The notes: generated from the sequence alone by a model not told the origin. Positions 3,849 to 20,436 are shown, counted from the first letter of the stretch. The stretch: DNA of 32,000 bases from an uncultured Candidatus Saccharibacteria bacterium (GCA_964406725.1 CAYOSV010000003.1:9962-41961); one strand, 5' to 3'. Translations and numbers: made by a program.

Positions 3849-3939
3849 GCGCGCGTGGTGGAATTGGTAGACACGCTACCTTGAGGTGGTAGTGGCCACA
3901 TTTACGGCTGTGCTGGTTCAAGTCCAGTCGCGCGCACCA
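3849..3939 (+). tRNA. tRNA-Leu (anticodon GAG), class II long variable arm, CCA encoded
   Basis: Acceptor gcgcgcg/cgcgcgc. D-arm gtgg-aattggtaga-cac. Anticodon stem ctacc/ggtag with loop ttGAGgt. 20-nt variable arm. T-arm gctgg-ttcaagt-ccagt. Discriminator A plus CCA. Confidence 0.93.
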
Positions 3940-4283
3940 GACCGAAATTCTTCGGTTGAAGCATTGCTAAATATGTGCTTTAGAGGTTTCTTCCATCTGA
4001 AAGAGACCTCATTTTTGTTGTTGATTTCTAGGTTCGTAAGCATATTTCTGGCCAACTGGTCTTTTTGCCAGGAATCGCCAGATTTCATCTTGTCACCGAT
4101 GGAATCCAGCTGGTTCGTAAGCTCATCCAGAATTTCGCGAACTTGGTCTGGATCGAAGATTTTAGCCTCAATCTCATCACGCTCAGTTTGCAAAGTTGCT
4201 ATATCGTTCCGGCATTCTTCAAGCTGTTCACCCACCATCTGTTTAGCCTCTTTTGGCGCATCTTTGCCTAAATGTCTGTTCCA
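3918..4283 (-). pseudogene. Start-less remnant of a coiled-coil protein (possibly the C-terminal part of a recombinase) running into the tRNA 3' end
   Basis: The frame is open from 4283 with its only Met at 4238 and no RBS. It has a heptad-like acidic coiled coil, then LEINNKNEVSFRWKK. The last ~7 codons are encoded by the tRNA 3' end, and a small hairpin (3941-3956) also lies inside it. Confidence 0.3.
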
Positions 4284-4297
4284 TTATTTCTTTTATT

Positions 4298-5869
4298 CTA
4301 TTTTCCATCCTTTTTCTCCACTATGTAATTATTATTATACTTCAACGGTTTAGTTAGCGTGTATTTGAAACGCTGAACCTCACGAGAATGATTTGGAACT
4401 TTTCGAAATCCATTATCACTATAGAATGTTTTAGTCTGCTCGTTCTTTTTGCTATCTATATACTCACCTATGACCGTTTTGACCCCTAATGTCTTTAGTT
4501 CATTTAATACGATTTTTAGAAATTCTCGCTCAATTTTTCGGCCTAATATTCTGCAACTCATTAAAAATGTATCTATAGTCGCTTCTTTTTTGTTTTTTCT
4601 AACTATTGCAACTCCGGTAAGGCCAAGATCTCCGAATTTATCACTTACTTTTATTGCTATTATTAGCGCGTCAGTCATATTAGCTAATTCGGTTTTACCG
4701 TAACGCCTAGTTGTTAAATTGAACTGATTCGTTTTATTGATCAGCTGAGCGATTCTGTCGCTATTATTGTCGTTTATGGTCTCGTAGGCTATTTTGATTT
4801 TCAATTTTTTTATAAACTCATCCTCGTTTTCGACTCTTCTTCTCAACTCTTCACTTTCCGTTTTATGTTTATAGTAAATATTTTTATTTACGTCGTCTTC
4901 TGTTAGTAGATATGTTCCGAAATATCTATAAAAATCTTTGGCGAAATGTCCAACCATTTTATAGGGTGAATCTGGGAAGTCTAAGACTGTAACTCCATCC
5001 AATGCTTTTACGTTTTCTCTTTCTACTGGGCTATCATCTATAAAAACAATGCTATCTAAACCGATATTCAGTTCATCAGCTAATTCAGAAATATTAAGTC
5101 TTTTCTCTGACCAATTTATCTTTTTAGCAGCAAAATCATCCAGAGACAATACTAAATCATCTCTTTTTTTGAAACACAGAGCTACATCATCATAGTTATT
5201 TTTGCTGCAAATCCCTAGCAGAATACCTTGATTTTTTAGCTCTAAAACCATTTGTTGAAAACTATGGAAACAATTGCCTGGATAGGAGCCGCTGATTTGT
5301 AAATTTGCCAATCCGTCTTCACCCAGAATACCACCCCACAAAGTATTATCTAAATCTAGGATTAGGCATTTTTTTCGAGTTCCTCGAAACAGCGCCATCT
5401 TATCTAAAATAAAACGCCGAAAATCTTTCGCAAGAGACGGGTTTATTATTGCATTATATAAGTAATAATACTTTGGGTTAAATACGTCGTTATGATTATT
5501 ATAAAATGGCGCTATATCTATAACTCTGACATTTTTCTGGCTATATAGATATTCATTATATGAGTTAATAGCTTTCTCTAATTCATTATTTCCGAAAACG
5601 AATGATTCGTAAAAATAATTATGTAGGGTGATTGCAAATATTGTCCTATTTGGATAATTGTTTATGATGTATTTCGCTCGTTCAAAATAGCTATTAATCG
5701 TCGACACTAAATCTTTAATAGAATAATCATATGGTAGCATATAGAAAATCATTATATCTGTGTCGTCGTTCAATAGTTTAATATCACCATATGCGCTATA
5801 CGATATAGTTTCTACGTCTTTGAATAAGTATTCAATTGCGGTATCACGATAACAGTAAATCTTTTTCAT
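4298..5869 (-). CDS. FkbH-like HAD-IIIC family protein (putative glyceryl-ACP forming enzyme) with C-terminal GNAT-like region
   Basis: Signature CLILDLDNTLWGGILGEDG (DxDxT HAD motif I), ICSKN, FIDDSP, and the C-terminal FLMSCRILGRKIEREFL typical of FkbH-domain proteins. Confidence 0.8.
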   Translation of the reverse strand: MKKIYCYRDTAIEYLFKDVETISYSAYGDIKLLNDDTDIMIFYMLPYDYSIKDLVSTINSYFERAKYIINNYPNRTIFAITLHNYFYESFVFGNNELEKAINSYNEYLYSQKNVRVIDIAPFYNNHNDVFNPKYYYLYNAIINPSLAKDFRRFILDKMALFRGTRKKCLILDLDNTLWGGILGEDGLANLQISGSYPGNCFHSFQQMVLELKNQGILLGICSKNNYDDVALCFKKRDDLVLSLDDFAAKKINWSEKRLNISELADELNIGLDSIVFIDDSPVERENVKALDGVTVLDFPDSPYKMVGHFAKDFYRYFGTYLLTEDDVNKNIYYKHKTESEELRRRVENEDEFIKKLKIKIAYETINDNNSDRIAQLINKTNQFNLTTRRYGKTELANMTDALIIAIKVSDKFGDLGLTGVAIVRKNKKEATIDTFLMSCRILGRKIEREFLKIVLNELKTLGVKTVIGEYIDSKKNEQTKTFYSDNGFRKVPNHSREVQRFKYTLTKPLKYNNNYIVEKKDGK

Positions 5870-6285
5870 ATTTCCTCCATTAATTCTATTAGTTTACCGC
5901 TCTTGTACATAAAGCATATCTTGCCATTGAACAATTTAGCTATTTCAATATTAGTGATTAAAGAATAGCCATCTTTTTTGAATACCTTAATGGTGCGATC
6001 AAGATTGTTTATTTTAAAACAGGTGTGGTATTCTTTCTTATAGTTGTTGTGTGACAAATTGAAAACTCGCGATTCTGGATTATCTGTATATATTAGCTCT
6101 ATGCTGTTTTGATTATCCTTACTAAGTAACCGCAACTTAGCCTTTTGCCCGGAGTCATAGACCTCGTTTGTAATTTGATAACCATCCCGCAGATATTCGT
6201 CCGTTAATTCATCTAAATTATTGGTGGCAACCCCTATGTGATGAATTACTAGCCCATTAACGACTCGGCAATTTTGACTTTTCAT
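5866..6285 (-). CDS. VOC/glyoxalase-family protein (methylmalonyl-CoA-epimerase-like fold)
   Basis: N-terminal LVIHHIGVATNNLDE resembles the VOC metal-binding beta-strand motif. Size is 139 aa. 4-nt ATGA coupling on both sides. Confidence 0.55.
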   Translation of the reverse strand: MKSQNCRVVNGLVIHHIGVATNNLDELTDEYLRDGYQITNEVYDSGQKAKLRLLSKDNQNSIELIYTDNPESRVFNLSHNNYKKEYHTCFKINNLDRTIKVFKKDGYSLITNIEIAKLFNGKICFMYKSGKLIELMEEI

Positions 6286-7424
6286 GCTAGCCTCTCTATC
6301 TTTTTTATGAGAGACTTCATATATTCTTCAGTGAATTGATCTCCGTAGTAACCTATACTGATATTTGTCTTATGGGAACATTCTACTATAACTATCGAAA
6401 ATGCACCTAGAGGTTGTTGTATTGATAAGTCTACAAAATCTTTAACTTTAAAATATTTATTGGAATATTCATTTAAATCTATTCTGCCTAAATGCGATAT
6501 GACGGCGCCGACGGAAAATTTATTGTAGTGTCGGTTTGCCATGCATCCAATTTTTATGCCCGTCTTTCGCAACAAACTTGGCATACGACAATAATAATTG
6601 TTCAAAGTATTGCTGATGTTTAACTCTTTGCTGTTCTTCAAACTATACAACAGCTCACCATTAATCTTGGTATAACTATCGCTCTTATCTACATCTAGAA
6701 AAACTGGCAAGGTCAGATTGCCTATATATGGATTGTTGCCGTCGTAACGTCTTAAATCTACAGGCACCATTACTCTTATCCGGTCGCTTTCAAATTCCCG
6801 AGCTAAAAGGCACGAAAGTTTGGCTATAATACCCGAAACATACTTGTCTAATTGTACGACTTGCCACCTTGTCGTGTATTGTTTGATAACCGACGCTTCG
6901 TCATGGATAATTCGGGGTAATTTTGGTTCTTTCTTCTTGTAGTAGTCTAGTTTCTTTAAGAAATCTTTCTCGGAGATAGCTTTTTTGCATTTTAGTGGCT
7001 TTTTTCCGCCTAGTAGATTTACAATGTTTTGCATAAAAAGAAGGGCACTCTTTCCATCCATTGCCGAATGGGCGAATCGAAACACTAAATAATCGCTCTT
7101 GGGCGCCTTCACGAGATAGACTTCCATTGAGTGGCTAATTAAATCTATTTTTTGATTAAATAAATCTAGACTATAGACAATAGAATCTTTGATTTTAATA
7201 TCTTGGATACTGATTGGATGCTGCTGTGGATAAAATTTACCCCTTCTTAGATAGACATTAAATTCTGGGCATTCTTTTATTACTCGCCTAATTACACATT
7301 CAATTATATCTTTATTTTTAATGCTGCTAGTTTTTAGAATGAACTGTATTGCATATGCATTGGTTGCGCTCTGTACATCCTCATATAATTGCTCTATATT
7401 TGTGATTTTTCGAATTGGTTTCAC
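6282..7424 (-). CDS. Stand-alone condensation-domain-type acyltransferase (HxxxDG; PapA5/WS-DGAT/NRPS C-domain superfamily)
   Basis: FRFAHSAMDGKSAL carries the HxxxDG catalytic motif at about residue 120. Downstream VDLRR and GNLT segments resemble C-domain motifs. 380 aa. Confidence 0.6.
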   Translation of the reverse strand: MKPIRKITNIEQLYEDVQSATNAYAIQFILKTSSIKNKDIIECVIRRVIKECPEFNVYLRRGKFYPQQHPISIQDIKIKDSIVYSLDLFNQKIDLISHSMEVYLVKAPKSDYLVFRFAHSAMDGKSALLFMQNIVNLLGGKKPLKCKKAISEKDFLKKLDYYKKKEPKLPRIIHDEASVIKQYTTRWQVVQLDKYVSGIIAKLSCLLAREFESDRIRVMVPVDLRRYDGNNPYIGNLTLPVFLDVDKSDSYTKINGELLYSLKNSKELNISNTLNNYYCRMPSLLRKTGIKIGCMANRHYNKFSVGAVISHLGRIDLNEYSNKYFKVKDFVDLSIQQPLGAFSIVIVECSHKTNISIGYYGDQFTEEYMKSLIKKIERLA

Positions 7425-8989
7425 TTTCCACCTCTCTTTATCTTTAATGTAGTGGTTTTCTCGAATTCATCTTCCTTGATTATGTATTTATTGATACGTT
7501 TATAATCCGGTAATTCTGCATTTATGTCTTTAATAAGTTTACTTATTTTGCTGTCGAGAGACTTATCTTTCCGGTTTTTATCTTCTGGCACTATTGTAGC
7601 GATAATTTGTAAGCCGGATTTCTTTTGAACTCCATTTATGATACTCTCTTTAACTATGTCGCTATAATTAATCAGTGTTTCTAGTTCCTCTGGATAAATG
7701 TTTTTACCGTTACTGGTCACAATGACGTTTTTCTTTCTACCAACTACTTCCAGATTACCATCATTTCTTATTCTGCCTAAATCACCCGTGTAGAGCCAAC
7801 CATTCTTTAAAACCTCTCCCGTAGCTTTTTCATCATCATAATAACCCAACATAACTTGTGGAGCTTTGGCAATAATTTCTCCAATACCAGCCGCATCTGG
7901 ATTGGCTATTTTTAGATGTACGCCATTTAGCGGCCTACCGACGCCAATTTTACTTTTTACAAACATTCCGCGAATGGTTAAAATCGGTGAGCTCTCCGTT
8001 AACCCGTATCCCTGGTAAATATTAAATCCTAAATCGTCCAGGAAGTTAAAAACCCTTTGGTCTAGCTCTGCTCCACCACAAGCGATCATGCGAACCTTGC
8101 CTCCAAATCTGGCGTGAATACTAGAGAATAAGAGCTTTCTTATATCAATATGTAATAGTCTCACTCCTCTTGATATAAAAATTAGTTTTTGCAGAGCCTT
8201 TTCTTTGTGTGTTTTCTTAGCTGTGAGTTTTATATTATTCATAATGTATTCGAGCAGCCTCGGTACCACAACGAGTGCAGTTGGCTGGTAAAAGCACATT
8301 TCTCTCTGCATGTCTTTAATATTTTTGCTAAAACAAATCGAGCATCCATTGGTAATAGGCACCAACACTGCACACATTAGAGTAAGCGTATGATGGAGTG
8401 GCAAAATTGTATAATACCTATCCGTGGATTTTAGCCTAAAAGCGGCGGCTGAAGAATAGGCACAAGAAACTAAGTTTTTTTCGGATAACATGACGATCTT
8501 AGATTTAGACGTTGTGCCGGAAGTTAGAAATAGTGCGGCGCAGTCGCGTTTCGACACTTTTTTGACTTTACGATTTGGCGTCTCTCTGATGATGTCGTCT
8601 ATTTTATTTATATGTTCTGCATGGATATTTTTAGGAAGACAATTTACTTTGTCTTTCGTTAAATCATCATAGAAAATGAAATCCAAACCGATACGCTTAG
8701 CAGATAATGCAAGCTCTTTTTCTGGCAGCTCTTTATCAAGTGGCACTATTGTTCCAACGTCAGCAGCCATGGCAAAGAATAGTAATAGCCAACTATAAGA
8801 ATTAGACGCATAAATACCAATCTTTTTGCCAACTAAACTATTGTCCACAAAGTAACCTGACAATTTTTGGATATCATTATAAAATTCTTCGTAGGTCTTT
8901 GAAAATTTTTCGTCGACGAAGAAAGTTTTCTGCCCATACTTTTGGACACTTTCAGAAATCATCGCAGAGAAATTATTCGCCCTAGTCAT
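7421..8989 (-). CDS. AMP-dependent synthetase/ligase (FadD-like fatty acyl-AMP/CoA ligase)
   Basis: ANL motifs: LTSGTTSKSKIV, YGLTESS, GWLYTGDLG, and a terminal TLKIKRG lysine. Confidence 0.85.
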   Translation of the reverse strand: MTRANNFSAMISESVQKYGQKTFFVDEKFSKTYEEFYNDIQKLSGYFVDNSLVGKKIGIYASNSYSWLLLFFAMAADVGTIVPLDKELPEKELALSAKRIGLDFIFYDDLTKDKVNCLPKNIHAEHINKIDDIIRETPNRKVKKVSKRDCAALFLTSGTTSKSKIVMLSEKNLVSCAYSSAAAFRLKSTDRYYTILPLHHTLTLMCAVLVPITNGCSICFSKNIKDMQREMCFYQPTALVVVPRLLEYIMNNIKLTAKKTHKEKALQKLIFISRGVRLLHIDIRKLLFSSIHARFGGKVRMIACGGAELDQRVFNFLDDLGFNIYQGYGLTESSPILTIRGMFVKSKIGVGRPLNGVHLKIANPDAAGIGEIIAKAPQVMLGYYDDEKATGEVLKNGWLYTGDLGRIRNDGNLEVVGRKKNVIVTSNGKNIYPEELETLINYSDIVKESIINGVQKKSGLQIIATIVPEDKNRKDKSLDSKISKLIKDINAELPDYKRINKYIIKEDEFEKTTTLKIKRGGK

Positions 8990-9506
8990 ATAGTTCCTCT
9001 ATGGCCTCCTCTAATTTATCCGTGAGAATGTCCGCATCTGAATCTTTTTTTATCTCTAATTTGATAGATGTCGCAATCGACTTTATGTCATCCGGAAAAT
9101 CATCATTATTAAGATTAATCCCTACTCCTACTACGACATATTCTAGTGTATCGGCCTTAAAATGCGCCTCAATCAAAATACCACAGACTTTTTTATTATT
9201 AATCTTGATATCATTCGGTAAAACCACTTTGGAATTTACGCCGTATAGTTCATTTAGCTTTTTAGAAATGATAACTGGTATGTGTTCTAAAGCATCTTTC
9301 CTTAACTTTTTGTCTCCACTTTTGTTTTTCAACAGGAAACTAAGAGTAATACTTTTATTTGGTTCGGAAAACCATTTCCTATCGAACTGTCCGCGCCCAT
9401 TCGTTTGGGATTTTGCAATGATTAGAATATTTTCATGCGTTTTGTCTGCTATTTTTTCTGCATGATCATTGGTGCTATTGATGCTTTCTAGAACAATTCT
9501 TTTCAT
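8982..9506 (-). CDS. birA: Biotin--protein ligase, catalytic core only (no HTH, apparently no C-terminal domain)
   Basis: SINSTNDHA, QTNGRGQFDRKW (GRGRxGRxW-type motif), KINNKKVCGILIE. Start placed at the second Met (ATGA overlap with the fabF stop, GGAG 6 nt upstream). The ORF track start is 9518. Confidence 0.8.
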   Translation of the reverse strand: MKRIVLESINSTNDHAEKIADKTHENILIIAKSQTNGRGQFDRKWFSEPNKSITLSFLLKNKSGDKKLRKDALEHIPVIISKKLNELYGVNSKVVLPNDIKINNKKVCGILIEAHFKADTLEYVVVGVGINLNNDDFPDDIKSIATSIKLEIKKDSDADILTDKLEEAIEELYD

Positions 9507-10729
9507 TGCGCGCTCCATTTCTTAAATACCAGACAGGCATTATGGCCACCAAAACCAAATGAATTAGATAGAGCATAGTTAGCGTTGGTCAACCGCTCTT
9601 TTTCAGAGACATTCAAGACACAGTCGTCTTCTAGATCCAACTTGTAAGTACTACCGGGTATAATTCCGCTCCCCAGCATTAATATCGTAGCTATAGCCTC
9701 TACTGCACCGCTAGCGCTAAGCAAGTGCCCGATTTGCGACTTAATCGACGACACGGGTGGACATTCCTTACTCCATATCTCGCGGATGGCTTTTGCTTCA
9801 GTTTTGTCACCCAATATCGTAGATGTGCCATGCGCATTGATATACCCGATATTGTCAGGATTAATCTCGGCGCAGGCAATAGCACCCAACATAGCATCCT
9901 TGCTCGATAGGCCTTCGTAGTCTGGTGATACCATATTAAAAGCATCCGAATTATTAGCGTATCCTACAATCTCGGCATATATCTTAGCCTTTCTTTTTAG
10001 CGCGTGAGATAGCTCTTCCAAAACTAGAACACCAGCACCCTCTCCTATTAGAAAACCACTACGCTTTTTATTGAAAGGAATTGAAGCGCATTTTTTGTCT
10101 TCGCCAGTATATATAGCCCTCATTGCGGCGAAGCCGGCGAGGGTTAGTGGAGTTATAGACGCATCTGCTGCTCCAGCAACGAAAATATTATTATCTCCAT
10201 TTCTGATTTTTAGAAATGCTTCACCTATTGATATGCCACCACTTGCGCAGGCCGCTACATGACACATACTACTCCCTTTAGCACCTAAATCTATTGATAC
10301 TTTTGCTGCGGCCGTATTTGGCAAAACTGATTGTAGGAAATATGGTGAAATTCTGGCTGCGCCTTTTGTGTCTAATTGTCTAACACCGTCACTCAATATC
10401 TCTGGTCCACCAATGCTTGTAGAAATATAAACTCCGACCTTCTTAGCATCTTCTAAAGCCATATCTAGTCCGGAATCATTCCATGCTTCACGTCCGGCAA
10501 TTCTCGCAAAATTTGTAAATCTCGAATCGAATTTTGTATCTCTTTTTGGCAAGGATGATAAGTCTAAATCTTTGACAGTTGCCGCTAACTTTACGGGCGA
10601 CTCGGCGAATTCTTCCGTATCTAAGACACTAATACCATCTTCGCCAGACTTTAGGCTATCCCAGAAGTCTTTTGCATTATTGCCAATAGGAGTAATCGCA
10701 CCTAACCCAGTTACTACCACTCGTCTCAT
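9503..10729 (-). CDS. fabF: Beta-ketoacyl-ACP synthase II (elongating KS, Cys-His-His)
   Basis: RRVVVTGLGAITPIG, active-site ACASGG, HGTST, GHLLSASG, FGFGGHN. Confidence 0.9.
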   Translation of the reverse strand: MRRVVVTGLGAITPIGNNAKDFWDSLKSGEDGISVLDTEEFAESPVKLAATVKDLDLSSLPKRDTKFDSRFTNFARIAGREAWNDSGLDMALEDAKKVGVYISTSIGGPEILSDGVRQLDTKGAARISPYFLQSVLPNTAAAKVSIDLGAKGSSMCHVAACASGGISIGEAFLKIRNGDNNIFVAGAADASITPLTLAGFAAMRAIYTGEDKKCASIPFNKKRSGFLIGEGAGVLVLEELSHALKRKAKIYAEIVGYANNSDAFNMVSPDYEGLSSKDAMLGAIACAEINPDNIGYINAHGTSTILGDKTEAKAIREIWSKECPPVSSIKSQIGHLLSASGAVEAIATILMLGSGIIPGSTYKLDLEDDCVLNVSEKERLTNANYALSNSFGFGGHNACLVFKKWSAQ

Positions 10730-11514
10730 TTTATAATCCTTTCAATATCTTCTAGCGACTCAACTTTCCTTACTCTAGCTCGAACCCCCTTTTCTTTGCA
10801 TATTTGACGAATTAGATTTACCGGCGCAGTTCCAATGCCGATGCTGATAAATTCATCTACTGAGTCATCCAACATATTTTCAATAATGCTTTGGAATTGT
10901 ACCGGGCTCACTAAATGCTTCACCATCGCTCCTCTGACATCTTTGATTATTTTCTTGCCAGTTAAGTTACAATAAATCGGTATAGTAGGCGTTTTCTCGC
11001 AAAAGCTATCTAAAAATCTCCTCATCTTTTCACTGGCACTATTTAAATATGGGGAATGGAAGGCGCCAGTTACTCGCAAATCAATTGTCGATGCGTTTTT
11101 AAATTGCCGGAAAGCATCCTTAAACTCCTTTATTCTTGTCTTTTCTCCTCCGACTACGGTTTGCATAGGTGAATTATAATTTGTAACAAAAAGACCGCAC
11201 CTCGTTGCCATTTTCTCAATTTCTTTTGCCGGCATACCGAGGCACGCCACCATAGAAGTATTTGAGCCTCTTAATGCATCATCCATTATTTTTTGCCTAA
11301 ATATTAGGATTTGCTCTAGCTCTTCAACGTTAAAAACATCCGCAACAGCAAAACACGCATATTCCCCAAGGCTAAGACCTGCTATCGCATCTGGCTTAAT
11401 ATCATTTGCGATTAAAATTTTCGCTAAAGCAATGCTCATCCAAAAAGTGGCTAGCTGAGGATTATGAATTCCCAGTCCTTCTCCTTGTCCAGTAAAAATA
11501 AACGCTCGTTTCAT
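10726..11514 (-). CDS. fabD: Malonyl-CoA:ACP transacylase, shortened
   Basis: FIFTGQGEG, nucleophile elbow GLSLGEY, NSPMQTVVGG, GAFHSPYL. 262 aa compared with about 310 for typical FabD. Confidence 0.8.
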   Translation of the reverse strand: MKRAFIFTGQGEGLGIHNPQLATFWMSIALAKILIANDIKPDAIAGLSLGEYACFAVADVFNVEELEQILIFRQKIMDDALRGSNTSMVACLGMPAKEIEKMATRCGLFVTNYNSPMQTVVGGEKTRIKEFKDAFRQFKNASTIDLRVTGAFHSPYLNSASEKMRRFLDSFCEKTPTIPIYCNLTGKKIIKDVRGAMVKHLVSPVQFQSIIENMLDDSVDEFISIGIGTAPVNLIRQICKEKGVRARVRKVESLEDIERIIK

Positions 11515-13133
11515 TGCTTATCCCAGTTCCTTATTCTATTATACCGTCTATCAAGTAATTGTTTCATATCAAATTTGCTTAAACGTACTAAGGACTCTGC
11601 AAAATAGCGCTCTATTTGCAAAGTGTTATATTCCAATGTACCTTCTTTTAGAATCTCGTCAACTAATCCCTCGTTATATAAATCTTTAGCTGTAAACTTC
11701 ATGTTTGCTAATAATTCTGGCTGGACTTCGGGTTTATTAAAAATAATTGCAGAATAGGATTCAGGTGATATGACGGAGTAAGTTGCTCCACTAAACATTG
11801 CGAGTACGTCCGAAACCGATAAACCCAATGCACCACCGCTACAACCTTCTCCAGTCACTATTGATACTATTGGTGTTTTTGTTTCCAGTAAATTGAGCAT
11901 ACTTTCCGAAATGGCAATACTTTGACAATTCTTTTCTGCAACATCTCCAGGATGCGCCCCAGGACTATCGAGCAATATCAGAACGGGCAAGTGAAACCTT
12001 TCGGCTAATTTTGCTACTCTAATGGCCTTCCTAAAGCCTTCTGGTCTAGTCATTCCGTAATTATTCTCTATATTCTCTCTCAGATTTCTGCCTTTATTCT
12101 GGATGATGAAAGCTGTTTTTATGCCAGATATTTCTCCGAGTCCAGTGAGTAAACTTGGATCATCATAAGAAATTCGATCTCCTTTCAATATTATGGGGTT
12201 GTCAAAAAGTTTAAAGAGATAATCGATTCCAACTGTTTTAGAGTTGTTTCTAATATTTTGGAGAACTATTTCTGGTTTTTTATTGCCATGGTCATATTCT
12301 GGTTTTTCATTCTCAGCTTTAATTGAATTGTTCTTGTTTAGTATAGCTAAAAGCTCAATAATTGTATTCAATATATCTTTTCGCTCGCAAATCATGTCTA
12401 GCCCGCCGCTTCTCAACACATATTTTGCACTTTGAAAATCGTCAGCAACCTGTTCGTGTAATATGTCTTTCACCAGCATCTTGCCGCCGAACCCAATTGA
12501 GGAATTTGGCTCAGCGATATTTATATCACCCATTAATCCAAAAGATGCAGTAGTGCCGCCATAAGTTGGATCCGTTAAAACAGAAATAAACGGCAGGCCT
12601 TTTTTGCGAAATTTCATCAAAGTAGCGTCAATCTTCGCCATTTGTACTAAGCCCACAGCGCCCTCTTGCATACGCACTCCGCCTCCAGCGCAGAAAGCCA
12701 CAACAGGAAGATTACTCTTTGTTGCATATTCGAAGGCTTTCGCGATTTTTTCACCATTTGCCTTCGATAAAGTACCAACCATAAAATATCGTTCCATTAG
12801 TATAGTAATAAAAATTTTACCGTTTACTTTACATTTGCCGACAATGACGGATTCAGAGAGGCCGGTACGATTTTTGTCCCGTTCAAATTTTTCACTATAA
12901 TCATATGTTCTTGAATTATCTATATCGTATTCTGCTAAAAGTTGTTTGAATTTTCCACCATTCTTTCGTATAATTTCTATTCTTTTTAGAGCTGGCATCC
13001 TCTCATGATGTTTGCATTTTTTGCACACTAGAAGCTCGTCCAATTCGTCACCGCAGTTTGAACAGGCTGGCCTATTTAAGATTCTAGCGTTACGCTTCTT
13101 TATTTTTATCTTCTGCTCATCCAGGATACTCAT
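11511..13133 (-). CDS. accD: Fused acetyl-CoA carboxylase carboxyltransferase beta-alpha (AccD-AccA)
   Basis: N-terminal Zn ribbon CSNCG...CKKC and an AccD-like half (VVAFCAGGGVRMQEG). C-terminal AccA-like half (GFRKAIRVAKLAERFHLPVLILLDSPGAHPG, VTGEGCSGGALG). Confidence 0.85.
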   Translation of the reverse strand: MSILDEQKIKIKKRNARILNRPACSNCGDELDELLVCKKCKHHERMPALKRIEIIRKNGGKFKQLLAEYDIDNSRTYDYSEKFERDKNRTGLSESVIVGKCKVNGKIFITILMERYFMVGTLSKANGEKIAKAFEYATKSNLPVVAFCAGGGVRMQEGAVGLVQMAKIDATLMKFRKKGLPFISVLTDPTYGGTTASFGLMGDINIAEPNSSIGFGGKMLVKDILHEQVADDFQSAKYVLRSGGLDMICERKDILNTIIELLAILNKNNSIKAENEKPEYDHGNKKPEIVLQNIRNNSKTVGIDYLFKLFDNPIILKGDRISYDDPSLLTGLGEISGIKTAFIIQNKGRNLRENIENNYGMTRPEGFRKAIRVAKLAERFHLPVLILLDSPGAHPGDVAEKNCQSIAISESMLNLLETKTPIVSIVTGEGCSGGALGLSVSDVLAMFSGATYSVISPESYSAIIFNKPEVQPELLANMKFTAKDLYNEGLVDEILKEGTLEYNTLQIERYFAESLVRLSKFDMKQLLDRRYNRIRNWDKQ

Positions 13134-14395
13134 TACTCATTCTCTCCAAAATAGCTATAGCTACCCACTATATAATCTTCTCGGCTAATAGTCTCGTAGA
13201 GTTCATCAACGTTAGTATGAGCACCTAAAATAATTATTTCATCAAGTGCGAGTTTCATCTTTGAGATCGCCCTCCGCCTTTCCTTGTCGCTTGCTATTAT
13301 TTTTGCAATCAGCGGATCATAATATGGCTTTATTCGGTATCCTTGATAAATATATGTGTCTATTCGCACATCTTTTCCCGTAGGTAAGCTAAATATATTA
13401 AGCTCGCCATTATCCTTAGCAGATAGCCTGCATTCGATGGCGCATTTTTTAGCACTCACTTTCATAGGCAGACGATTCTTCTGACCTGAAGCTATTCTGA
13501 TCTGCTGTTCAACAAGATCTATACCCGTGACCTCTTCTGTTACAGTATGTTCGACTTGTAATCTAGAATTTATTTCAAGAAAATAATAGTTCATCTGTTT
13601 ATCCACCAAAAATTCAATCGTCCCGACACTATCAAATCCAACCTCTTTTATAAGTTTGACGGCGTCTTGTTCCATTTTTTCCAACAGCTCTTTTGGTATA
13701 TTAGACACTGGGGTTTCTTCAATGACCTTCTGATAATGCGATTGCACGGAGCAGTCTCTGGCCGGTAGAATAGAAATTTTGCCGAATTTGTCCGCAACAA
13801 ACTGTATATCTATATGCTTATATAAATCTATTATTTGCTCCAGGAAGAAACTGTCTCCGCTAAACCCAGTGCTCAAATTTAGTTTGGCGGATTTGAGACA
13901 ATAGTCGAAATCCTCTTTGTTTTTTACTGTTTTTATGCCTTTTCCACCACCGCCATAGCTTGATTTAATCATTAGCGGATATTCATCTTTATCGACTGAT
14001 GGGATAACTGGAATTCCTAATTTTCTTGCCATTTCTTTCATCCGGAATTTATTTGCAGTTTTTTCTAAAATGTTGCTTGATGGCCCAATAAATATAATTC
14101 CACTTTCATGGGCTCGTTTTGCAAACTCATCATTTTCGCTTAAAAAGCCATACCCTGGATGCAAAGAATCACATCCCGTATTTTTTGCCGCCTCTAGAAT
14201 TGCTGGAATGTTAAGATACGAGTCTGATGGGCTGCTATCACCAATACAAATCGCCTCATCGGCCAAGAATACCGCCATAGTATCTTTATCGCATTTTGAG
14301 TATGCCACAACCGTTCTAATACCCAAAATACGGCAGGTCTGTATTATTCTTACTGCTATTTCTCCTCTATTTGCAATTAGTACTTTTTGAATCAT
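13133..14395 (-). CDS. accC: Biotin carboxylase
   Basis: KVLIANRGEIAVRII, HPGYGFLSEN, SYGGGGKGI, RDCSVQSHYQKVIEE, EINSRLQVEHTVTE. Confidence 0.92.
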   Translation of the reverse strand: MIQKVLIANRGEIAVRIIQTCRILGIRTVVAYSKCDKDTMAVFLADEAICIGDSSPSDSYLNIPAILEAAKNTGCDSLHPGYGFLSENDEFAKRAHESGIIFIGPSSNILEKTANKFRMKEMARKLGIPVIPSVDKDEYPLMIKSSYGGGGKGIKTVKNKEDFDYCLKSAKLNLSTGFSGDSFFLEQIIDLYKHIDIQFVADKFGKISILPARDCSVQSHYQKVIEETPVSNIPKELLEKMEQDAVKLIKEVGFDSVGTIEFLVDKQMNYYFLEINSRLQVEHTVTEEVTGIDLVEQQIRIASGQKNRLPMKVSAKKCAIECRLSAKDNGELNIFSLPTGKDVRIDTYIYQGYRIKPYYDPLIAKIIASDKERRRAISKMKLALDEIIILGAHTNVDELYETISREDYIVGSYSYFGENE

Positions 14396-14757
14396 ATATA
14401 ATCAACCTCAAAAAGCTTAGAGCCAAATTCTACACTCTCTCCGTTCTTAAAATACGTTTTTCTAATAATCAAATCAGCCGGTGCACAAATTTTATTCATT
14501 ATTTTCATGCTTTCAATGATACATAAAGACTGACCTTCTTTAACTCTTTCGTTTATTTGTATGGTTGGGGATACATCATAATAAGTGCCTACCAGCGGCG
14601 ACAAAATATGTTTATCTGGATAGTCAGTCTTTTCTTGATCCGTTTTAGGACCATTCTTCTTTATAGAAACTCTAAAATCGGCATCCTCGTACTCAAATTC
14701 GGTTGCTTCAGAATTATCGAAATCAGCTAAAATCTTCTTTAGTTTATCAATTGGCAC
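14392..14757 (-). CDS. accB: Biotin carboxyl carrier protein, short form
   Basis: Biotinyl-lysine motif CIIESMKIMNKI in a C-terminal lipoyl/biotinyl fold. 121 aa. Confidence 0.8.
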   Translation of the reverse strand: MPIDKLKKILADFDNSEATEFEYEDADFRVSIKKNGPKTDQEKTDYPDKHILSPLVGTYYDVSPTIQINERVKEGQSLCIIESMKIMNKICAPADLIIRKTYFKNGESVEFGSKLFEVDYI

Positions 14758-14983
14758 TTTCTATACCTTTCTCCGCTAGTAAATCCAAACAATTCTTTAC
14801 GGTCTTTAGTTTAGCGAGTTCGCTTTGCTCTACTTTTATATTGTATTTTTCTTCAAGCGAGAGCACTAATTGCGTAGTCGCCAAGCTATCGATCATCAAA
14901 TCGTCTCTTAGGCTAGTTTCTAATGTAATATCATCGTCTATGCCCAATTCCTCATCTAGAAACTTTTTAAATTCTTTCAACAT
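14747..14983 (-). CDS. Acyl carrier protein (cluster-specific)
   Basis: 78 aa, acidic, with the phosphopantetheine site LMIDSLATTQLV (DSL). Confidence 0.85.
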   Translation of the reverse strand: MLKEFKKFLDEELGIDDDITLETSLRDDLMIDSLATTQLVLSLEEKYNIKVEQSELAKLKTVKNCLDLLAEKGIESAN

Positions 14984-14984
14984 T

Positions 14985-15917
14985 TTATATCTCCATTAAT
15001 AATATATTAGATGTTAACCCTGCCGCAGTCCCACATAGCATTACTTTGTCACTAGTATGGATTTTTCCTTCTTCTAGCATTTTGCATAACATAAATGGAA
15101 CCGAAACGGACACTTGATTACCAAAGCTATCAACGCGATTGACATATTTTTCTTCTGGTATTCCCAATTTTTTCATAATCAAGGGTAATGCCTTACTCGC
15201 CTGATGTGGGATTACTAAGTCTACATCGTTCAATGATAGATTAGCCTCTTTTTTAAAATCATCAAACATTTTTGGTAATTTTCGCGTGCATGCACGTAAT
15301 ATATCGAGCCCCTCCATTTTAAAGTAATATTTGTCTCGGTTTTTATTGTTCATTTTAGTGGCATTAAGTCCAGTTAATCCACCTATAATTTCTGTCGCGT
15401 GCGCGCTTTCTGACCAAGTGCACTGTTTAGAGGCTATTACACCTTGTTTCGTATCATTAGTATGAGAAAGTACAATTGCCGCGGCTCCGTCAGAGAATAG
15501 TTCATAGATTTCTTTTTTATCCTTCGGAAGCCCAGGGCTAGCCAGCTCGCTTGATACAATTAAAATATTTCTATATGTTCCAGCTGCAATTAGATACGAT
15601 GCAATGTCCAGTGCGGTTATAAAGCTAGTACAAGTGGTATTAATATCCATGGCAGGAATATTGCAGTCGTTCATTATTTGTTCATGAATTAAGCTTGCTG
15701 TACAGGGGATTGGTTGGATACCTACTGCTGAAGCGGCTATTATCAAATCAATATTTTCTGGTTTTAGCCTAGCATTTTTCATCGCCTTTTTAGCGGCATC
15801 TGTCGCCATAAAAAGTTGATTTTCCTTACCTGAAGCTCTGTATCTAATTTGACTACCAAATGTCACTATGTTTTTTGGTAAATAATATCCATAGCCCGAT
15901 ATTTTACAATTTCTCAT
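14985..15917 (-). CDS. KAS III (FabH)-like condensing enzyme
   Basis: ISGYGYYLP at the N-terminus. Cys in NTTCTSF, His in IPHQAS, Asn in FGNQVSVS (Cys-His-Asn triad). 310 aa. Confidence 0.85.
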   Translation of the reverse strand: MRNCKISGYGYYLPKNIVTFGSQIRYRASGKENQLFMATDAAKKAMKNARLKPENIDLIIAASAVGIQPIPCTASLIHEQIMNDCNIPAMDINTTCTSFITALDIASYLIAAGTYRNILIVSSELASPGLPKDKKEIYELFSDGAAAIVLSHTNDTKQGVIASKQCTWSESAHATEIIGGLTGLNATKMNNKNRDKYYFKMEGLDILRACTRKLPKMFDDFKKEANLSLNDVDLVIPHQASKALPLIMKKLGIPEEKYVNRVDSFGNQVSVSVPFMLCKMLEEGKIHTSDKVMLCGTAAGLTSNILLMEI

Positions 15918-17191
15918 TTTTTTATCCTTTCCACTCGCTTCATCTTTTTACTAAAATCAGATTCATATTTCTTAAAAGTAGTGGCTGGCATTTTGAAACG
16001 CATTCTCTTAGCGAGAGTTTTTAACTCTTCTTTGATTAGTCTTTGATTTTCAATGTCTATATTATCTAGATAAAAAATGACTTTTTTAGATGATTCTTGT
16101 ACTACTCTATAATTCTTTATTTTGGGCACGTAGAGTACCACTCTGGAAATAAAATCAGGGAATACTTTTATCGTTCTATCATTTACGCCATCAAATTCAA
16201 AAACATCATCCATCCTTCCTTCTATCTTCTTAAGCCTCGTCATGGATGTCCCGCATTTACATGGCCTTCTGTCTTCAACCAAAATATCGTTTAATCGATA
16301 TTTGACAATAGGTTGAGTCGTCCTAACAAAGTCTGTGATAACCGGAGTAAATCTTGTGTCGTCAAGATACTCCTTTTCAACCGCTATAACATCCTCGTTG
16401 AGATGTAGGGAGCCATGCTCGCAAGTGTATCCAAGGAATCCTTCGGTGCATTGATATACTTGGTATATTATCTTTTGCTTGAAAACCCTTTTCAAATATT
16501 GTTCGTCTTTTTCTGTTAATACTTCTGCAACTGATATAATCCTTACCGGATTAATGCTCAGCTTCTTGGCTTTGGTAGCCTCCGCCAGTATGAGCAGTAC
16601 AGATGGCGGTGCGATCAAAATTGTCGGCTGAAACTCCTGTAATTTTATTATATTTTGTTCCATTGGCTTTAAGATGTCAAAAAACTCAAATTTAAGCATC
16701 TTACTGTTTGATGACTCATATAAGTTATTGTCAGCCCGAAGGAAAAACGCAACTTTGGTCCCAAAGATCTTACCTTTCGGTAGCATTTTTGCCATCATGC
16801 CGCCCACCCACGTTGCGATCTCAATGTCGCTAAGGACAAACACCCCACGGTGTCCGCTTGTCCCAGATGACAACCCAACAGAATAGCCATTCAGCTTTTC
16901 CGAAAAATCACGGCTTTTTTCGCTATTAATAGCTAGCTTAAGGGCATCGTCCTTTGATATTCCAGCTGTATTTATTCTGTCAAAATTATCCATCATGACT
17001 TTTTTATTCATATACGGCAACTCTTCAAAAGTTTTGCCACTAAACTTTTGAAAATACGGGGAATGGTGTTCTAGAAAAACTAGTTGTTTTTTTATCTGTT
17101 TTTGCTGATATTTTTCCAGCCTCTTTCGACTTTTAAATTTGTGAAAATAGCGAGCACGAATAAATGTTTTAAGAATTAAGCCTTTATTCAT
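15914..17191 (-). CDS. F390-synthetase-related / PaaK-like adenylate-forming enzyme
   Basis: N-terminal KRLEKYQQKQIKKQL helix. P-loop-like GLSSGTSGHRGVF. Size and layout are as in the F390 synthetase/phenylacetate-CoA ligase clade. Confidence 0.7.
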   Translation of the reverse strand: MNKGLILKTFIRARYFHKFKSRKRLEKYQQKQIKKQLVFLEHHSPYFQKFSGKTFEELPYMNKKVMMDNFDRINTAGISKDDALKLAINSEKSRDFSEKLNGYSVGLSSGTSGHRGVFVLSDIEIATWVGGMMAKMLPKGKIFGTKVAFFLRADNNLYESSNSKMLKFEFFDILKPMEQNIIKLQEFQPTILIAPPSVLLILAEATKAKKLSINPVRIISVAEVLTEKDEQYLKRVFKQKIIYQVYQCTEGFLGYTCEHGSLHLNEDVIAVEKEYLDDTRFTPVITDFVRTTQPIVKYRLNDILVEDRRPCKCGTSMTRLKKIEGRMDDVFEFDGVNDRTIKVFPDFISRVVLYVPKIKNYRVVQESSKKVIFYLDNIDIENQRLIKEELKTLAKRMRFKMPATTFKKYESDFSKKMKRVERIKK

Positions 17192-17982
17192 AGCAGCTCC
17201 TTTTTATTGTTTGCATCATGGCTAAATACCAGATTAACACCTTTTTTCTTTAATAACTTTAAGTTATCTAGGGTATTACGGTATTCTCTCATATTGTCCT
17301 GTATTAATGATGCAGGAAACTTCATATGGTATGATAGATCAATTAAATCATTCCCCCAACATGAGTCTGCTGCTAACAAAATCTTATTATCTATTAGCGC
17401 ACCCAATTGACCGCTAGCGTGACCACCTAGCTTTAATAAAATTAAACTGCCGTCATTAAACAAGTCGTAACCTTTTAGCGCACCAAAAACTTCAGTTACC
17501 ATCATTTTGTCTGAAATTACGTTAGCCCTATCTTCAAAATCGGCAGGAAAGAAATGTTGCATTATTAAATCTCGTATCCTTCTATTTTTGTATGTATTTA
17601 TAGTTTCTTTTGAGACAATAAAATTCGCCTTGCCAAAACTCCTAAGTCCACCAATATGGTCTGGGTGCAAATGCGACAGTATAATTATCTTAATATCCTC
17701 CGGCCGAGTCCCGATCTTACTAAGTTGAAACTTTAGCTCGTCATTTTCTTCTACTGATGTGGGATTAAAGAAATTATAAGCTCTACCAACAAAACCAGTT
17801 TTACAAATATCGACAGAATAACCTGTATCAAAAAGAATCAGCCCATGTTTAGCGTGCTCAATCAAAAATGCTCCGGCTGGGAATTTTCTTTTTTCGCCAC
17901 GCATACCCCTAAAAACTCGACCGAGGTTATTTGTACAATATCCACAACTAAAATACTTAACACTTTTGATGGCTGGTTGCAT
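17188..17982 (-). CDS. MBL-fold metallo-hydrolase (lactonase-like)
   Basis: HxHxDH motif ILSHLHPDHIGG, plus later GGHASG and SHD metal ligands. N-terminal SCGYC segment. Overlaps the SDR stop by 26 nt. Confidence 0.8.
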   Translation of the reverse strand: MQPAIKSVKYFSCGYCTNNLGRVFRGMRGEKRKFPAGAFLIEHAKHGLILFDTGYSVDICKTGFVGRAYNFFNPTSVEENDELKFQLSKIGTRPEDIKIIILSHLHPDHIGGLRSFGKANFIVSKETINTYKNRRIRDLIMQHFFPADFEDRANVISDKMMVTEVFGALKGYDLFNDGSLILLKLGGHASGQLGALIDNKILLAADSCWGNDLIDLSYHMKFPASLIQDNMREYRNTLDNLKLLKKKGVNLVFSHDANNKKELL

Positions 17983-18955
17983 ATTTCTCGATTCCTTCGC
18001 TTAATGTCATCTTTGGTTTATATCCCAAATCTCGCTTCGCTTTGTCAATATTTAAAGTCTGGCTATAGCCCAAAGTGCAGATAGTGTATTTAGTAATTGG
18101 TGGCTCTTTATAAATATGAAAAACCTTATAAATTGATTCTATGGCGGTTGCGGCCGAGATGGCGAATCTTAAGTTAATATTCTTGTATCTTGGTGTTTCG
18201 CCAAGTTGCTTAAATAATTCCTCCAGCAATCCTTTGAATTCTTGCGGCTCATCATTGGTGATATTATAAATCTTATGTGATGACTTTTTACTTTCTGCTG
18301 CGAGCCTCACTGCGTATGCGACATTTTCGACGCACGTCATATCTACATAGTTCTTTCCGCCCCCAAACAAAGGCAATCCTATTTTCTTGTTAGCATGTAT
18401 TAGTCTAGGAACGATACTCGTATCGCCTACCCCAAATAATCCTCGTGGGCGAAGTATTGTCCAATTAATGTCATCATATTTCTCGATAGCTTTCTCGGCT
18501 AGAATTTTACTTTCAATATAGTAGTTCAATTTGTTGTCTCTATCATAATCATCTTCGTCTATATCTAATTTATCGGATCTGCCAGCATAAATACTGGGGG
18601 ATGATATATACACGAGTTTATTAATCTTGTTTTTACGGCAGGCTTCCAAGATGTTTTTAGTACCATCGACATTGGTTTTTAAAAAATCGGATCGTTTACC
18701 CCACACAGTTGAAAGTGCACCGAGATGAGCGACAATATTAATATTTTTCGTAGCCTTTAAGCAATCTGACGAACTACATAAATCTCCGTAAGCCAATTCG
18801 ATTTCCGGATATTGCTGCTTTAAAGCTGACATTTTTTGCTTATTTCTGCCAAAAGCAACGACAGTATATCCGTTATCCAAAAATTCGGCAATAACATACT
18901 TACCTAAAAATCCATAAGCGCCAGTAACTAATACTCTACGTGAGATCCTTTTCAT
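17957..18955 (-). CDS. NAD(P)-dependent epimerase/dehydratase / 3-beta-HSD-type SDR
   Basis: Rossmann VLVTGAYGFLGKYV and catalytic YIESKILAEK (YxxxK). Start moved to MKRISRR (GGAG 6 nt upstream). The ORF-track start at 19000 lies inside a leader hairpin. Confidence 0.8.
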   Translation of the reverse strand: MKRISRRVLVTGAYGFLGKYVIAEFLDNGYTVVAFGRNKQKMSALKQQYPEIELAYGDLCSSSDCLKATKNINIVAHLGALSTVWGKRSDFLKTNVDGTKNILEACRKNKINKLVYISSPSIYAGRSDKLDIDEDDYDRDNKLNYYIESKILAEKAIEKYDDINWTILRPRGLFGVGDTSIVPRLIHANKKIGLPLFGGGKNYVDMTCVENVAYAVRLAAESKKSSHKIYNITNDEPQEFKGLLEELFKQLGETPRYKNINLRFAISAATAIESIYKVFHIYKEPPITKYTICTLGYSQTLNIDKAKRDLGYKPKMTLSEGIEKYATSHQKC

Positions 18956-19128
18956 GATTTTCTCCATACTATCCCCATAACCAAGTGGAACACTCGCCAT
19001 GGAGTGTTCTAGACTTCATTTTTCACAGTAAGCTATCGAGCCAACTGGAGCGAGTGCTCCACGCAGGGTTCGATATTTCACACTACCTTGTTAGGGGTAG
19101 ACTTACCATGAAATTGAAATCTAGAACT
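18956..19128 (-). promoter_or_regulatory. Structured ~170-nt 5' leader of the biosynthetic operon (candidate riboswitch/attenuator, class unknown)
   Basis: Nested helices on the minus-strand RNA, in plus coordinates: 19120-19127 with 19006-19013; 19098-19106 with 19028-19035; 19067-19073 with 19036-19042; hairpin 19047-19060. An alternative hairpin at 18988-19009 excludes the outer helix. Confidence 0.4.
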
Positions 19129-19134
19129 ATCTTT

Positions 19135-19143
19135 ATTATATCA
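19135..19143 (-). promoter_or_regulatory. Extended -10 promoter (TGATATAAT on minus strand) for the 15-gene operon
   Basis: Reverse complement of attatatca is tgatataat. It lies in the only gap (19001-19164) of the cluster. Confidence 0.6.
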
Positions 19144-19164
19144 TACCCACCGCCAAAATTGCGG

Positions 19165-20313
19165 CTATATGTCTAATACTTTTTTATATAATCTTTCGAC
19201 TTTTATACCAAACTCTTCTTTGCTAAAATTATTGGATTTTTTCAAGGAATTTTTATGCATATCATCCATCAACATCTTATTGTTTAATATAGACTCAACA
19301 CCTTCTATAAAATCATCTTCATTTTCAAAAACAAATCCGTTGCTACCTTTTTCTATTATCCTATCTAGACATTTATCTTTTTTGCAGACCATGGGCATCC
19401 CAGATGCTAATGCCTCTACATATGTTAGCCCTTGCGTCTCACTCGTTGATGCTGATACGAAAATATTCCCCAATTGATAATATTTGTATATTTCATCTCG
19501 CAAAATCGCACCGGTAAAAATCACATGGTCACTCATATCCAATTTATTTATTTCCTTAACTAATTTTGTTTTATATGGTCCATCTCCCACTATGATTAGT
19601 TTTATGTCTTTGTCTCTTTTTGTTAATGCTGGCAAGTACCTAAGTAACTCATCTATATTCTTTTCTGCTGCCAATCTGCATACTGTTACTAAATATTTAT
19701 TAGAATTTTGCAAACCTAATTCGGATAAAATTTTCGTTTTTTCTTTTTTGGGCAATCTTTTCTTATAGATATTCATATCTATACCGGAAGGAATGATTTC
19801 TATCGGGCATTTTATACCATATTTTTCCATTACAGCTTTTACCTTTTCCGACGGGACAATTAGCGTCGCCGAAGTGTTATAGATTTTATTGCTCATAATT
19901 TTCACAATTTTCTTGCCAAGTTTCTTGTTTGGGCAAAAATATTCAGTATAATCTTCGTATAATGTATGGCATGTTGCCACAAATGGAATATTGAGGGTTT
20001 TTATTATTTTATTTGCAAGAATTTTAGTGGTAAATTCTGATTGAGCATGGACAATATCGGGTTTCCAATCTATGATTTTTTGTATCAACTTATCATGTGT
20101 TTTTAAACTAAACCTTGCCCCCGGATAAACCGGAATCGGCTTAGACGCAATATAATAATTATTATCCTTAAAATATGATTTACCGTTTGGAGATAAAACA
20201 AGCATCCGGACATCATGCCCCAGTTTTCTTAGCTCATCTTTTAATGCAGCGTTTGAATTATGAGCCCCGCTTATTTGGTATTCACACACGTCAGATGAAA
20301 ATAATATTTTCAT
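19165..20313 (-). CDS. GT4-family glycosyltransferase (resembles glycosyl-diacylglycerol/glycolipid synthases)
   Basis: N-terminal MKILFSSDV...ISGAHNSNAALKDELRKLGHDV pattern, as in MGS/CpoA-type GT4 enzymes. E-x7-E motif in STSETQGLTYVEALASG. Confidence 0.75.
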   Translation of the reverse strand: MKILFSSDVCEYQISGAHNSNAALKDELRKLGHDVRMLVLSPNGKSYFKDNNYYIASKPIPVYPGARFSLKTHDKLIQKIIDWKPDIVHAQSEFTTKILANKIIKTLNIPFVATCHTLYEDYTEYFCPNKKLGKKIVKIMSNKIYNTSATLIVPSEKVKAVMEKYGIKCPIEIIPSGIDMNIYKKRLPKKEKTKILSELGLQNSNKYLVTVCRLAAEKNIDELLRYLPALTKRDKDIKLIIVGDGPYKTKLVKEINKLDMSDHVIFTGAILRDEIYKYYQLGNIFVSASTSETQGLTYVEALASGMPMVCKKDKCLDRIIEKGSNGFVFENEDDFIEGVESILNNKMLMDDMHKNSLKKSNNFSKEEFGIKVERLYKKVLDI

Positions 20314-20343
20314 ATTAAGTTTATTCTTTGTTATCTCTTACGT

Positions 20344-20352
20344 ATTATATCA
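20344..20352 (-). promoter_or_regulatory. Extended -10 promoter (TGATATAAT on minus strand) for the GT4 gene
   Basis: Reverse complement of attatatca. It lies about 30 nt upstream of the ATG at 20313. Confidence 0.55.
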
Positions 20353-20376
20353 TAATCCAGCTTCTTAGAATTTATT

Positions 20377-20418
20377 ATGTAACGAAAACTACCCAATTTT
20401 CGTTACATAGAGTATAAT
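20377..20418 (+). promoter_or_regulatory. abiE promoter with 12-bp perfect inverted repeat (candidate AbiEi operator)
   Basis: atgtaacgaaaa (20377-20388) / ttttcgttacat (20397-20408), 8-nt spacer, directly followed by tataat (20413-20418), SD aaggag (20425-20430) and the ATG at 20437. Confidence 0.6.
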
Positions 20419-20436
20419 GGATTTAAGGAGAAAAAT

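Follow-up and report, generated by a model that had tools for sequence, protein, structure and literature searches.

A 32,000-nucleotide stretch of DNA from an uncultured Candidatus Saccharibacteria bacterium (GCA_964406725.1, CAYOSV010000003.1:9962-41961; hereafter the window) carries a minimal biotin protein ligase (BPL) among genes for an acetyl-CoA carboxylase (ACC), an acyl carrier protein (ACP) and condensing enzymes. We consider it probable that these genes (8982-14983) form a compact, translationally coupled module for making malonyl units on an island of about 18.6 kb, and that the ligase has been kept because the host lineage has neither a biotin ligase nor biotin enzymes of its own. 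The host is a gut Saccharibacterium represented by a metagenome-assembled genome (MAG) of 855,729 bp (0.86 Mb; 94 contigs, 95% complete, 42.8% GC), and the module sits in a mobile, serine-recombinase island of this genome.

Every component belongs to a known family, and fused AccD-AccA proteins (AccDA), cluster-borne ACC subunits and cluster-borne phosphopantetheinyl transferases (PPTases) are already known. What is unusual is the combination: the sole ACC of a cell together with its own, extremely reduced ligase and, in complete copies, a PPTase, all on a recombinase-borne island in a class where biotin enzymes and biotin ligases were otherwise not found and PPTases were few. Acyl-chain building is generally considered to be beyond Saccharibacteria and other Patescibacteria, which are regarded as obtaining their lipids from host bacteria. 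The island would be a route by which malonyl-CoA formation and condensing enzymes are gained in one step, and it shows what must travel together into a recipient without biotin or carrier-protein metabolism, namely a biotin ligase and a PPTase. In the literature we found no described gene cluster carrying a biotin ligase, and nothing on ACC or biotin ligase in Saccharibacteria or Patescibacteria.

In the proposed pathway the ligase would make biotinyl-AMP and biotinylate the ESMKIM lysine of the island biotin carboxyl carrier protein (BCCP), the only biotin acceptor in the cell. Biotin carboxylase (BC) and the fused carboxyltransferase would turn acetyl-CoA into malonyl-CoA, the FabD-like enzyme would put malonate on the ACP, and the ketoacyl-ACP synthases KAS III and KAS II would condense malonyl units into a lipid- or polyketide-like island product.

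The minimal ligase and its partner enzymes

The ligase matches PF03099 (53.6 bits, cut-off 21) and the BirA ligase family TIGR00121 (128.8 bits, cut-off 83.1; profile positions 3-167 of 235), and aligns with residues 87-256 of the 323 residues of S. aureus BirA. Of its two candidate starts the ATG at 9506, giving 174 aa, is the more likely, because it produces an ATGA overlap and because all database homologues (14 clusters at 49-100% identity) are 172-175 aa. As the earlier note on this DNA had proposed, only the catalytic core is present. The protein stops directly after the final catalytic-domain helix, with no match to the C-terminal SH3-like domain (PF02237, BPL_C), and no helix-turn-helix (HTH) family was matched at the N-terminus, where a class II BirA has a winged HTH; it is not a class II ligase. 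The biotin-binding loop (GRGQFDRKW, residues 41-49) has one Gly replaced by Asp relative to GRGRxGRxW, the catalytic lysine lies in KKVCGIL (residues 109-115), and GVGINLN is also present. The columns of the loop and of the lysine are invariant in the ligase alignment (A2). An AlphaFold model (pLDDT 92.8, pTM 0.89) has only BPL catalytic domains as structural neighbours, with TMq up to 0.84 (S. aureus BPL), and of the Foldseek matches listed none is shorter than about 209 aa (H. pylori), compared with 174 aa here.

The class I BPLs of Pyrococcus horikoshii and Aquifex aeolicus (~233-235 aa) share the catalytic fold (TMq 0.73-0.84), the GRG..R.W loop, the catalytic lysine and the absence of an HTH with the island ligase, which differs in that about 20 N-terminal residues are also absent and the Trp of KWPND is replaced. 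This otherwise conserved Trp is replaced in both groups of alignment A2 that lack the C-terminal domain (VLPND, residues 99-103, in the island; K[KSE]PND in Clostridia), and in ligases that have the domain it may pack against it. A core of about 170 aa suffices for biotinyl-AMP, since the engineered A. aeolicus BPL of residues 2-170 (the microID/ultraID core), made without the C-terminal domain, is active in making it (PMC9253107); in the island ligase the domain is absent naturally rather than by engineering. Conservation of length and motifs in both the island and the Clostridial families argues that the natural core is active as well.

The thumb of E. coli BCCP blocks lipoylation, and in alignments to solved homologues the thumb of the island BCCP is 5 aa shorter. 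Because PF03099 spans biotin and lipoate ligases, the 174-aa protein could in principle be a lipoate or octanoyl ligase, or a promiscuous releaser of biotinyl-AMP, instead of a BCCP biotin ligase; class I ligases, once truncated, can turn promiscuous (PMC9253107). We reject the lipoate-ligase reading, and regard this whole alternative as very improbable, on the TIGR00121 score, the uniformly BPL structural neighbours, the conserved biotin-binding-loop arginine and catalytic lysine, and the fact that the genome has no lipoyl/biotinyl domain above cut-off other than that of the island BCCP.

The reading frames, lengths and families given in the earlier note (Table 1) all stand, and its list of contiguous genes named the right members while omitting KAS II and the ACP. 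In the BCCP, the N-terminal part aligns with residues 1-38 of E. coli BCCP, the BC-binding part and the biotinyl-lysine motif are present, and the linker is short. All three domains of BC match (PF00289, PF02786, PF02785) and its catalytic motifs are kept (MIKSS, GGGGKG, EINSRLQVEH, ECR), with a short C-terminus and two internal stretches deleted, ~14 aa where the lid domain begins (near residue 135) and ~8 aa from a loop of the C-domain (near residue 338). AccD and AccA are one 540-aa frame, not separate polypeptides. By alignment the AccD part, with its Zn ribbon (C24..C27, C37..C40), spans approximately residues 24-270 and the AccA part approximately 281-536 (profile matches: TIGR00515, accD, 32-270; PF03255/NF004344, accA, 287-537), and the AccA part is without the first ~55 residues of free-standing AccA. 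The FabD-like protein has the oxyanion motif GQGEG (residues 9-13), the serine motif GLSLGE (46-51), FRQK with the malonyl-selecting arginine (72-75) and GAFHS with the catalytic histidine (150-154), with ~45 residues deleted internally after GQG.

Mis-called starts, which the earlier note had raised as a possible cause of the short lengths, do not account for them: each protein can be aligned with solved homologues from residue 1 onward, so the called starts are correct, and judging by these alignments the shortness consists of internal deletions or missing domains. In BC, FabD and BCCP it is specific to the island lineage, being kept in the 72%-identical locus L017 and the 49-56%-identical fragment L018, and it is consistent with a module that has long been compact. 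The suggestion that these three proteins were shortened within reduced genomes is supported in part.

A single biotin system on a mobile island

The MAG contains one PF03099 gene, one BC, one biotinyl domain above cut-off and one carboxyltransferase, and the search for a second birA or accABCD set, or for bioY, that the earlier note had called for found none. We compared this with samples of related genomes. Neither PF03099 nor a BC domain was found in 300 other genomes of the class, a close AccDA was absent from all 400 genomes sampled from the family, and PF03099 was present in 9 of 400 genomes of the phylum (4 of the 9 in one family with larger genomes). The single set of BPL, BC, BCCP and carboxyltransferase, together with the empty class sample, supports the contention of the earlier note that the recipient cannot be relied on to biotinylate BCCP.

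Lone AccD/AccA-like fused carboxyltransferases of 633-658 aa do occur in two other Saccharibacteria genomes of the same family (L015:9757-11658, G587:C4; G473:C3:60567-62180). They are 27-34% identical to the window fusion and lie in a core context with L10, thymidine kinase, DnaX and DnaB. No PF03099 ligase was found in G587 or G473, in which no search for BC or BCCP was made.

In tblastn searches with the Clostridial operon proteins, FabZ and FabK/FabI had no match in the window genome, and among the reductive enzymes the only hit was a generic short-chain dehydrogenase/reductase (SDR) on contig 14. The genome thus does not have the set that defines a complete type II fatty-acid synthase (FAS II: FabG, FabZ, FabI/FabK and a PPTase), and the lack of a ketoreductase, dehydratase and enoyl-reductase cycle argues that the module does not serve fatty-acid synthesis.

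Two other Saccharibacteria MAGs, from the jejunum of a roe deer and the ileum of a sheep, contain copies that match the window at 98% nucleotide identity between exactly 22901 and 4262 and no further, which sets the bounds of the island. AccDA is 99% identical in these MAGs. The low GC content of the island (~36-39%, compared with 42.8% for the genome) and the Bacilli and Clostridia MAG proteins that are the nearest named relatives of its AccDA and ligase are what would be expected if a Firmicute island had been wrongly joined to a Saccharibacteria MAG during assembly or binning. However, contig C3, which bears the island, also carries ClpP, L31, tRNA-Leu, UvrC and enolase; 25 of 25 genomes of the genus have a syntenic counterpart of the 7-kb right flank (24900-31900), at 65-77% nucleotide identity; and in the two MAGs from other animals the island is carried by contigs of 64 kb and 123 kb. 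Finally, L017 is a 72%-identical, fully colinear copy of 18 genes whose flanks resemble other contigs of the window genome (44-70% protein identity). We therefore reject contamination and give an artefact almost no credence.

The divergence of L017, with its Saccharibacteria-like flanks, indicates that the island diversified within Saccharibacteria-like hosts. Between copies, nearly every island gene has a dN/dS of 0.1-0.3, the exception being FabD against L006 (0.82, on only 8 substitutions). A scan for BC in viral contigs gave no matches. The metagenome scan, which used very general patterns, returned mostly ordinary ACC genes, and the close relatives in it were only L017 and L018; the ordinary loci yielded the Clostridial operons described below. 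Between the tRNA-Leu side and the boundary at 22901 we found no att-like direct repeat, only short matches at chance level.

Firmicutes-type fab-acc operons and the probable origin of the ligase linkage

The Firmicutes-type fab-acc operon has the order fabD-fabG-fabF-accB-fabZ-accC-accD-accA with acpP, known from Streptococcus pneumoniae. Three gut-metagenome loci (L031, L048, L078) begin with an acyl-AMP/CoA ligase (~560 aa) and a BPL of 187-195 aa without BPL_C, followed by FabD (313 aa), FabG, FabF, AccB, FabZ, AccC (446-452 aa), AccD and AccA. L048 continues after AccA with an unassigned 257-aa open reading frame (ORF) and then ACP, and L031 and L078 end at AccA/AccD. The order is the same in L042, where BPL and FabD read as one 482-aa frame. 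In L065 the order is ACP-AccB-AccC-AccD-AccA-FabH-FabK-FabD-FabG-FabF-FabZ-x-BPL, with a BPL of 261 aa, and this order minus the reductive genes is that of the window.

The island shares with Firmicutes-type operons the ACP, AccB, AccC, AccD/AccA, FabD, FabF and FabH families and, as in L031, L048, L078 and L065, an embedded BPL with an adjoining acyl-AMP/CoA ligase. It differs in having no FabG, FabZ or enoyl reductase, in the fusion of AccD with AccA, in BC, FabD and BCCP that are 25-50 aa shorter than their counterparts, in an overall protein identity of only 30-46%, and in its location on a mobile island in a phylum without the pathway. Fused AccD-AccA proteins of Lachnospiraceae and other Clostridia (556-591 aa) have the same beta-alpha order and Zn ribbon, but the island fusion is 20-50 aa shorter and 35-37% identical to them; among named relatives of AccDA, a Bacilli MAG protein (43%) and the Lachnospiraceae fused forms (35-37%) come nearest.

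The Clostridial mini-ligases of ~192 aa form a large family (2282 matches; the best 120 are all 189-203 aa, and one is named as a Clostridia MAG protein). They end at the same point after the last catalytic-domain helix as the island ligase, have lost the same Trp, and likewise have an acyl-AMP/CoA ligase and fab genes as neighbours. They are only 31-41% identical to it, however, keep an N-terminal leader strand (187-195 compared with 174 aa), and sit in complete FAS II operons with partners of normal length. A minimal BirA is thus not a mark of genome reduction.

Constraining all mini-ligases to a single clade gives a higher-scoring tree (lnL +14.3) that is not rejected (p-AU 0.85). It is plausible, on gene content and protein comparison, that the module is a compact, reductase-less derivative of a Firmicutes-type fab-acc operon to which a mini-ligase was already linked, and the presence of the ligase probably began as linkage inherited in the donor operon. 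The donor operon would have lost FabG, FabZ and the enoyl reductase and become compact, the ligase staying because the new hosts have none.

These operons also bear on whether the ligase is a pure hitch-hiker, present only through prior linkage to donor fab and acc genes and without any special role. The 187-195-aa ligases that, beside an acyl-AMP/CoA ligase, head complete fab-acc operons, the 261-aa BPL that closes the L065 operon and the size of the mini-ligase family are all in keeping with such an account. We nevertheless find it improbable: with no other BPL in 300 genomes of the class, BCCP would stay in the apo form without the island ligase; ligase length and motifs are kept across island variants down to 49% identity; and the putative ancestor's reductive fab genes disappeared, whereas the ligase was retained. 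Moreover, an origin through linkage is compatible with retention through need, which is the explanation that we favour.

Gene clusters for polyketides and lipopeptides can include additional ACC subunits or an Sfp-type PPTase of their own. Complete island copies resemble them in bringing along both precursor supply and the enzyme that activates the carrier protein. In the island, however, the ACC is the sole one of the cell and not a supplement, and a biotin ligase is carried too.

State of the window copy and gene layout

Downstream of FkbH, L007 and L017 have genes for a 70-71-aa ACP-like protein and a 173-174-aa Sfp-like PPTase (PF01648). L006, the copy of the roe-deer MAG, also has a second ACP and a PPTase, and there the PPTase and a 476-aa large serine recombinase precede a tRNA-Leu remnant. 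The PPTase lies 4-5 kb downstream of the ligase in the sister copies. In the window copy the second ACP is cut to 15 codons, the PPTase is deleted and the recombinase is reduced to a C-terminal remnant. As complete copies carry both the second ACP and the PPTase, the island normally brings both cofactor-attaching enzymes, the biotin ligase and the PPTase. The idea that the module travels with its own cofactor ligase is thus strengthened for the island family and weakened for this genome, and the description "self-contained" fails for the window copy, which is without the PPTase and second ACP and in whose genome no Pta or CoaE was found.

The remaining ACP is the sole PP-binding protein found in the genome. 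Since no enzyme that would activate it was found there, this copy may still form malonyl-CoA but is probably blocked at the ACP-dependent steps, those of FabD and the KAS enzymes.

The module in this genome could therefore be a recently disabled relic, its ACP chemistry dead and its ACC and ligase genes simply not yet decayed. This is consistent with the 15-codon ACP remnant, with the PPTase present in the sister copies and missing here, and with the rarity of PPTases in the class (5 of 150 genomes above cut-off, none in the genus). On the other hand, none of the 16 remaining genes is disrupted and their nucleotide identity to the complete copies is 96-99.8%, a MAG in 94 contigs leaves room for a PPTase elsewhere, and CoA-dependent enzymes could still use malonyl-CoA. 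On balance we think a relic unlikely, although less so than any of the alternatives above.

Several observations weigh against the explanation of a working module with a ligase retained through need. No PPTase was found anywhere in the window genome by Pfam or tblastn searches. BioY (in the 95%-complete, 94-contig genome), Pta (PF01515) and CoaE (PF01121) were likewise not found, so that biotin, CoA and acetyl-CoA must come from elsewhere, and the explanation does not account for the supply of biotin, CoA, acetyl-CoA and holo-ACP in this genome. The low dN/dS values mostly record history before the deletion. Scores fall below the NCBIfam equivalog cut-offs for several of the proteins, which are thus divergent members of their families: accC (447.8 against 626.5 bits), accD (231.3 against 317.45), accA (211.7 against 319.3), BCCP (82.1 against 115.2) and the FabD-like protein (TIGR00128, 136.4 against 260.9). 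According to earlier work as cited in PMC9253107, E. coli BirA without its C-terminal domain is nearly inactive, so the activity of the natural 174-aa ligase on BCCP is assumed from conservation. With regard to origin, the backbone of the BPL tree is a star, so the phylogeny that the earlier note had envisaged names no donor lineage, and the genes of the island are not in the order seen in the operons with the closest ligases, which leaves descent from a Clostridial operon plausible rather than demonstrated.

A broader reading is that the island transplants biotin- and phosphopantetheine-dependent chain building into a phylum with neither cofactor system, bringing along both attachment enzymes, and that its 174-aa ligase is the smallest natural BPL. 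We put this forward tentatively, as somewhat doubtful. If it is true, a single-substrate ligase functions although it has no C-terminal domain, the part considered necessary for recognising BCCP, and Saccharibacteria with complete islands make an acyl or polyketide-like lipid of their own and do not take all lipids from the host bacterium. The natural, conserved 174-aa ligase and the ~190-aa Clostridial family bear on BCCP recognition and on compact enzymes for proximity labelling, and the truncated window copy is a natural test of which island parts are dispensable.

The features of the island are collected in Table 1. Most operon junctions have ATGA or similar stop/start overlaps. KAS III is the last gene of an upstream cassette (SDR, metallo-beta-lactamase-fold (MBL) hydrolase, F390-like adenylase, KAS III) and likely consumes the malonyl units of the module.

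Table 1. Features of the island and its tRNA-Leu side, in window coordinates
Feature	Position	Strand	Remarks
Island extent	4262-22901		~18.6 kb; 98% nucleotide identity to copies in two Saccharibacteria MAGs
146-aa ORF	22149-22589		within island; same position in L006 and L007
DUF6088/AbiEii type IV toxin-antitoxin pair	20437-22027	opposite strand	within island
GT4 glycosyltransferase	19165-20313		directly upstream of operon, within island bounds
Operon extent	19000 down to 4298	minus	genes named with Pfam and NCBIfam
3-beta-HSD-type SDR	17957-19000	minus	Pfam/NCBIfam
MBL hydrolase	17188-17982	minus	Pfam/NCBIfam
F390-synthetase-related adenylase	15914-17191	minus	TIGR02304, E = 1e-161
KAS III (FabH-like), 310 aa	14985-15917	minus	Cys-His-Asn
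ACP, 78 aa	14747-14983	minus	DSL, serine motif at residues 32-34
BCCP (AccB), 121 aa, GTG start	14392-14757	minus	ESMKIM at residues 82-87
BC (AccC), 420 aa	13133-14395	minus	ATP-grasp motifs
AccD-AccA fusion carboxyltransferase, 540 aa	11511-13133	minus	Zn ribbon and AccA part
FabD-like malonyl-CoA:ACP transacylase, 262 aa	10726-11514	minus	GQG, Ser, Arg, His motifs
KAS II (FabF-like), 408 aa	9503-10729	minus	Cys-His-His triad: ACASG, AHGTST, GHLL
Minimal BPL (BirA), 178 aa or fewer	8982-9518 (178 aa); 8982-9506 (174 aa)	minus	catalytic core
Acyl-AMP/CoA ligase, 522 aa	7421-8989	minus	overlaps stop of biotin ligase
Condensation-like protein	6282-7424	minus	Pfam/NCBIfam
VOC protein	5866-6285	minus	Pfam/NCBIfam
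FkbH-like protein	4298-5869	minus	Pfam/NCBIfam
Second-ACP remnant, first 15 codons	about 4264-4308	minus	comparison with complete island copies
Large serine recombinase, C-terminal remnant	3918-4238	minus	adjoins tRNA-Leu; 476 aa in L006
tRNA-Leu	3849-3939		beside recombinase remnant

The genome has two further homologues of the AMP-binding ligase, on contigs C11 and C23. The 146-aa ORF was considered as a hidden PPTase and rejected, as it has no Pfam match. The AbiE-type toxin-antitoxin pair may be an addiction module of the island. At the far end of the operon, the roe-deer copy L006 (15710-17958) has the condensation-like, VOC and FkbH genes replaced by two glycosyltransferase genes, encoding a 363-aa GT2 and a 386-aa GT1/GT28-like protein, and the PPTase comes next; at its tailoring end the island is modular.

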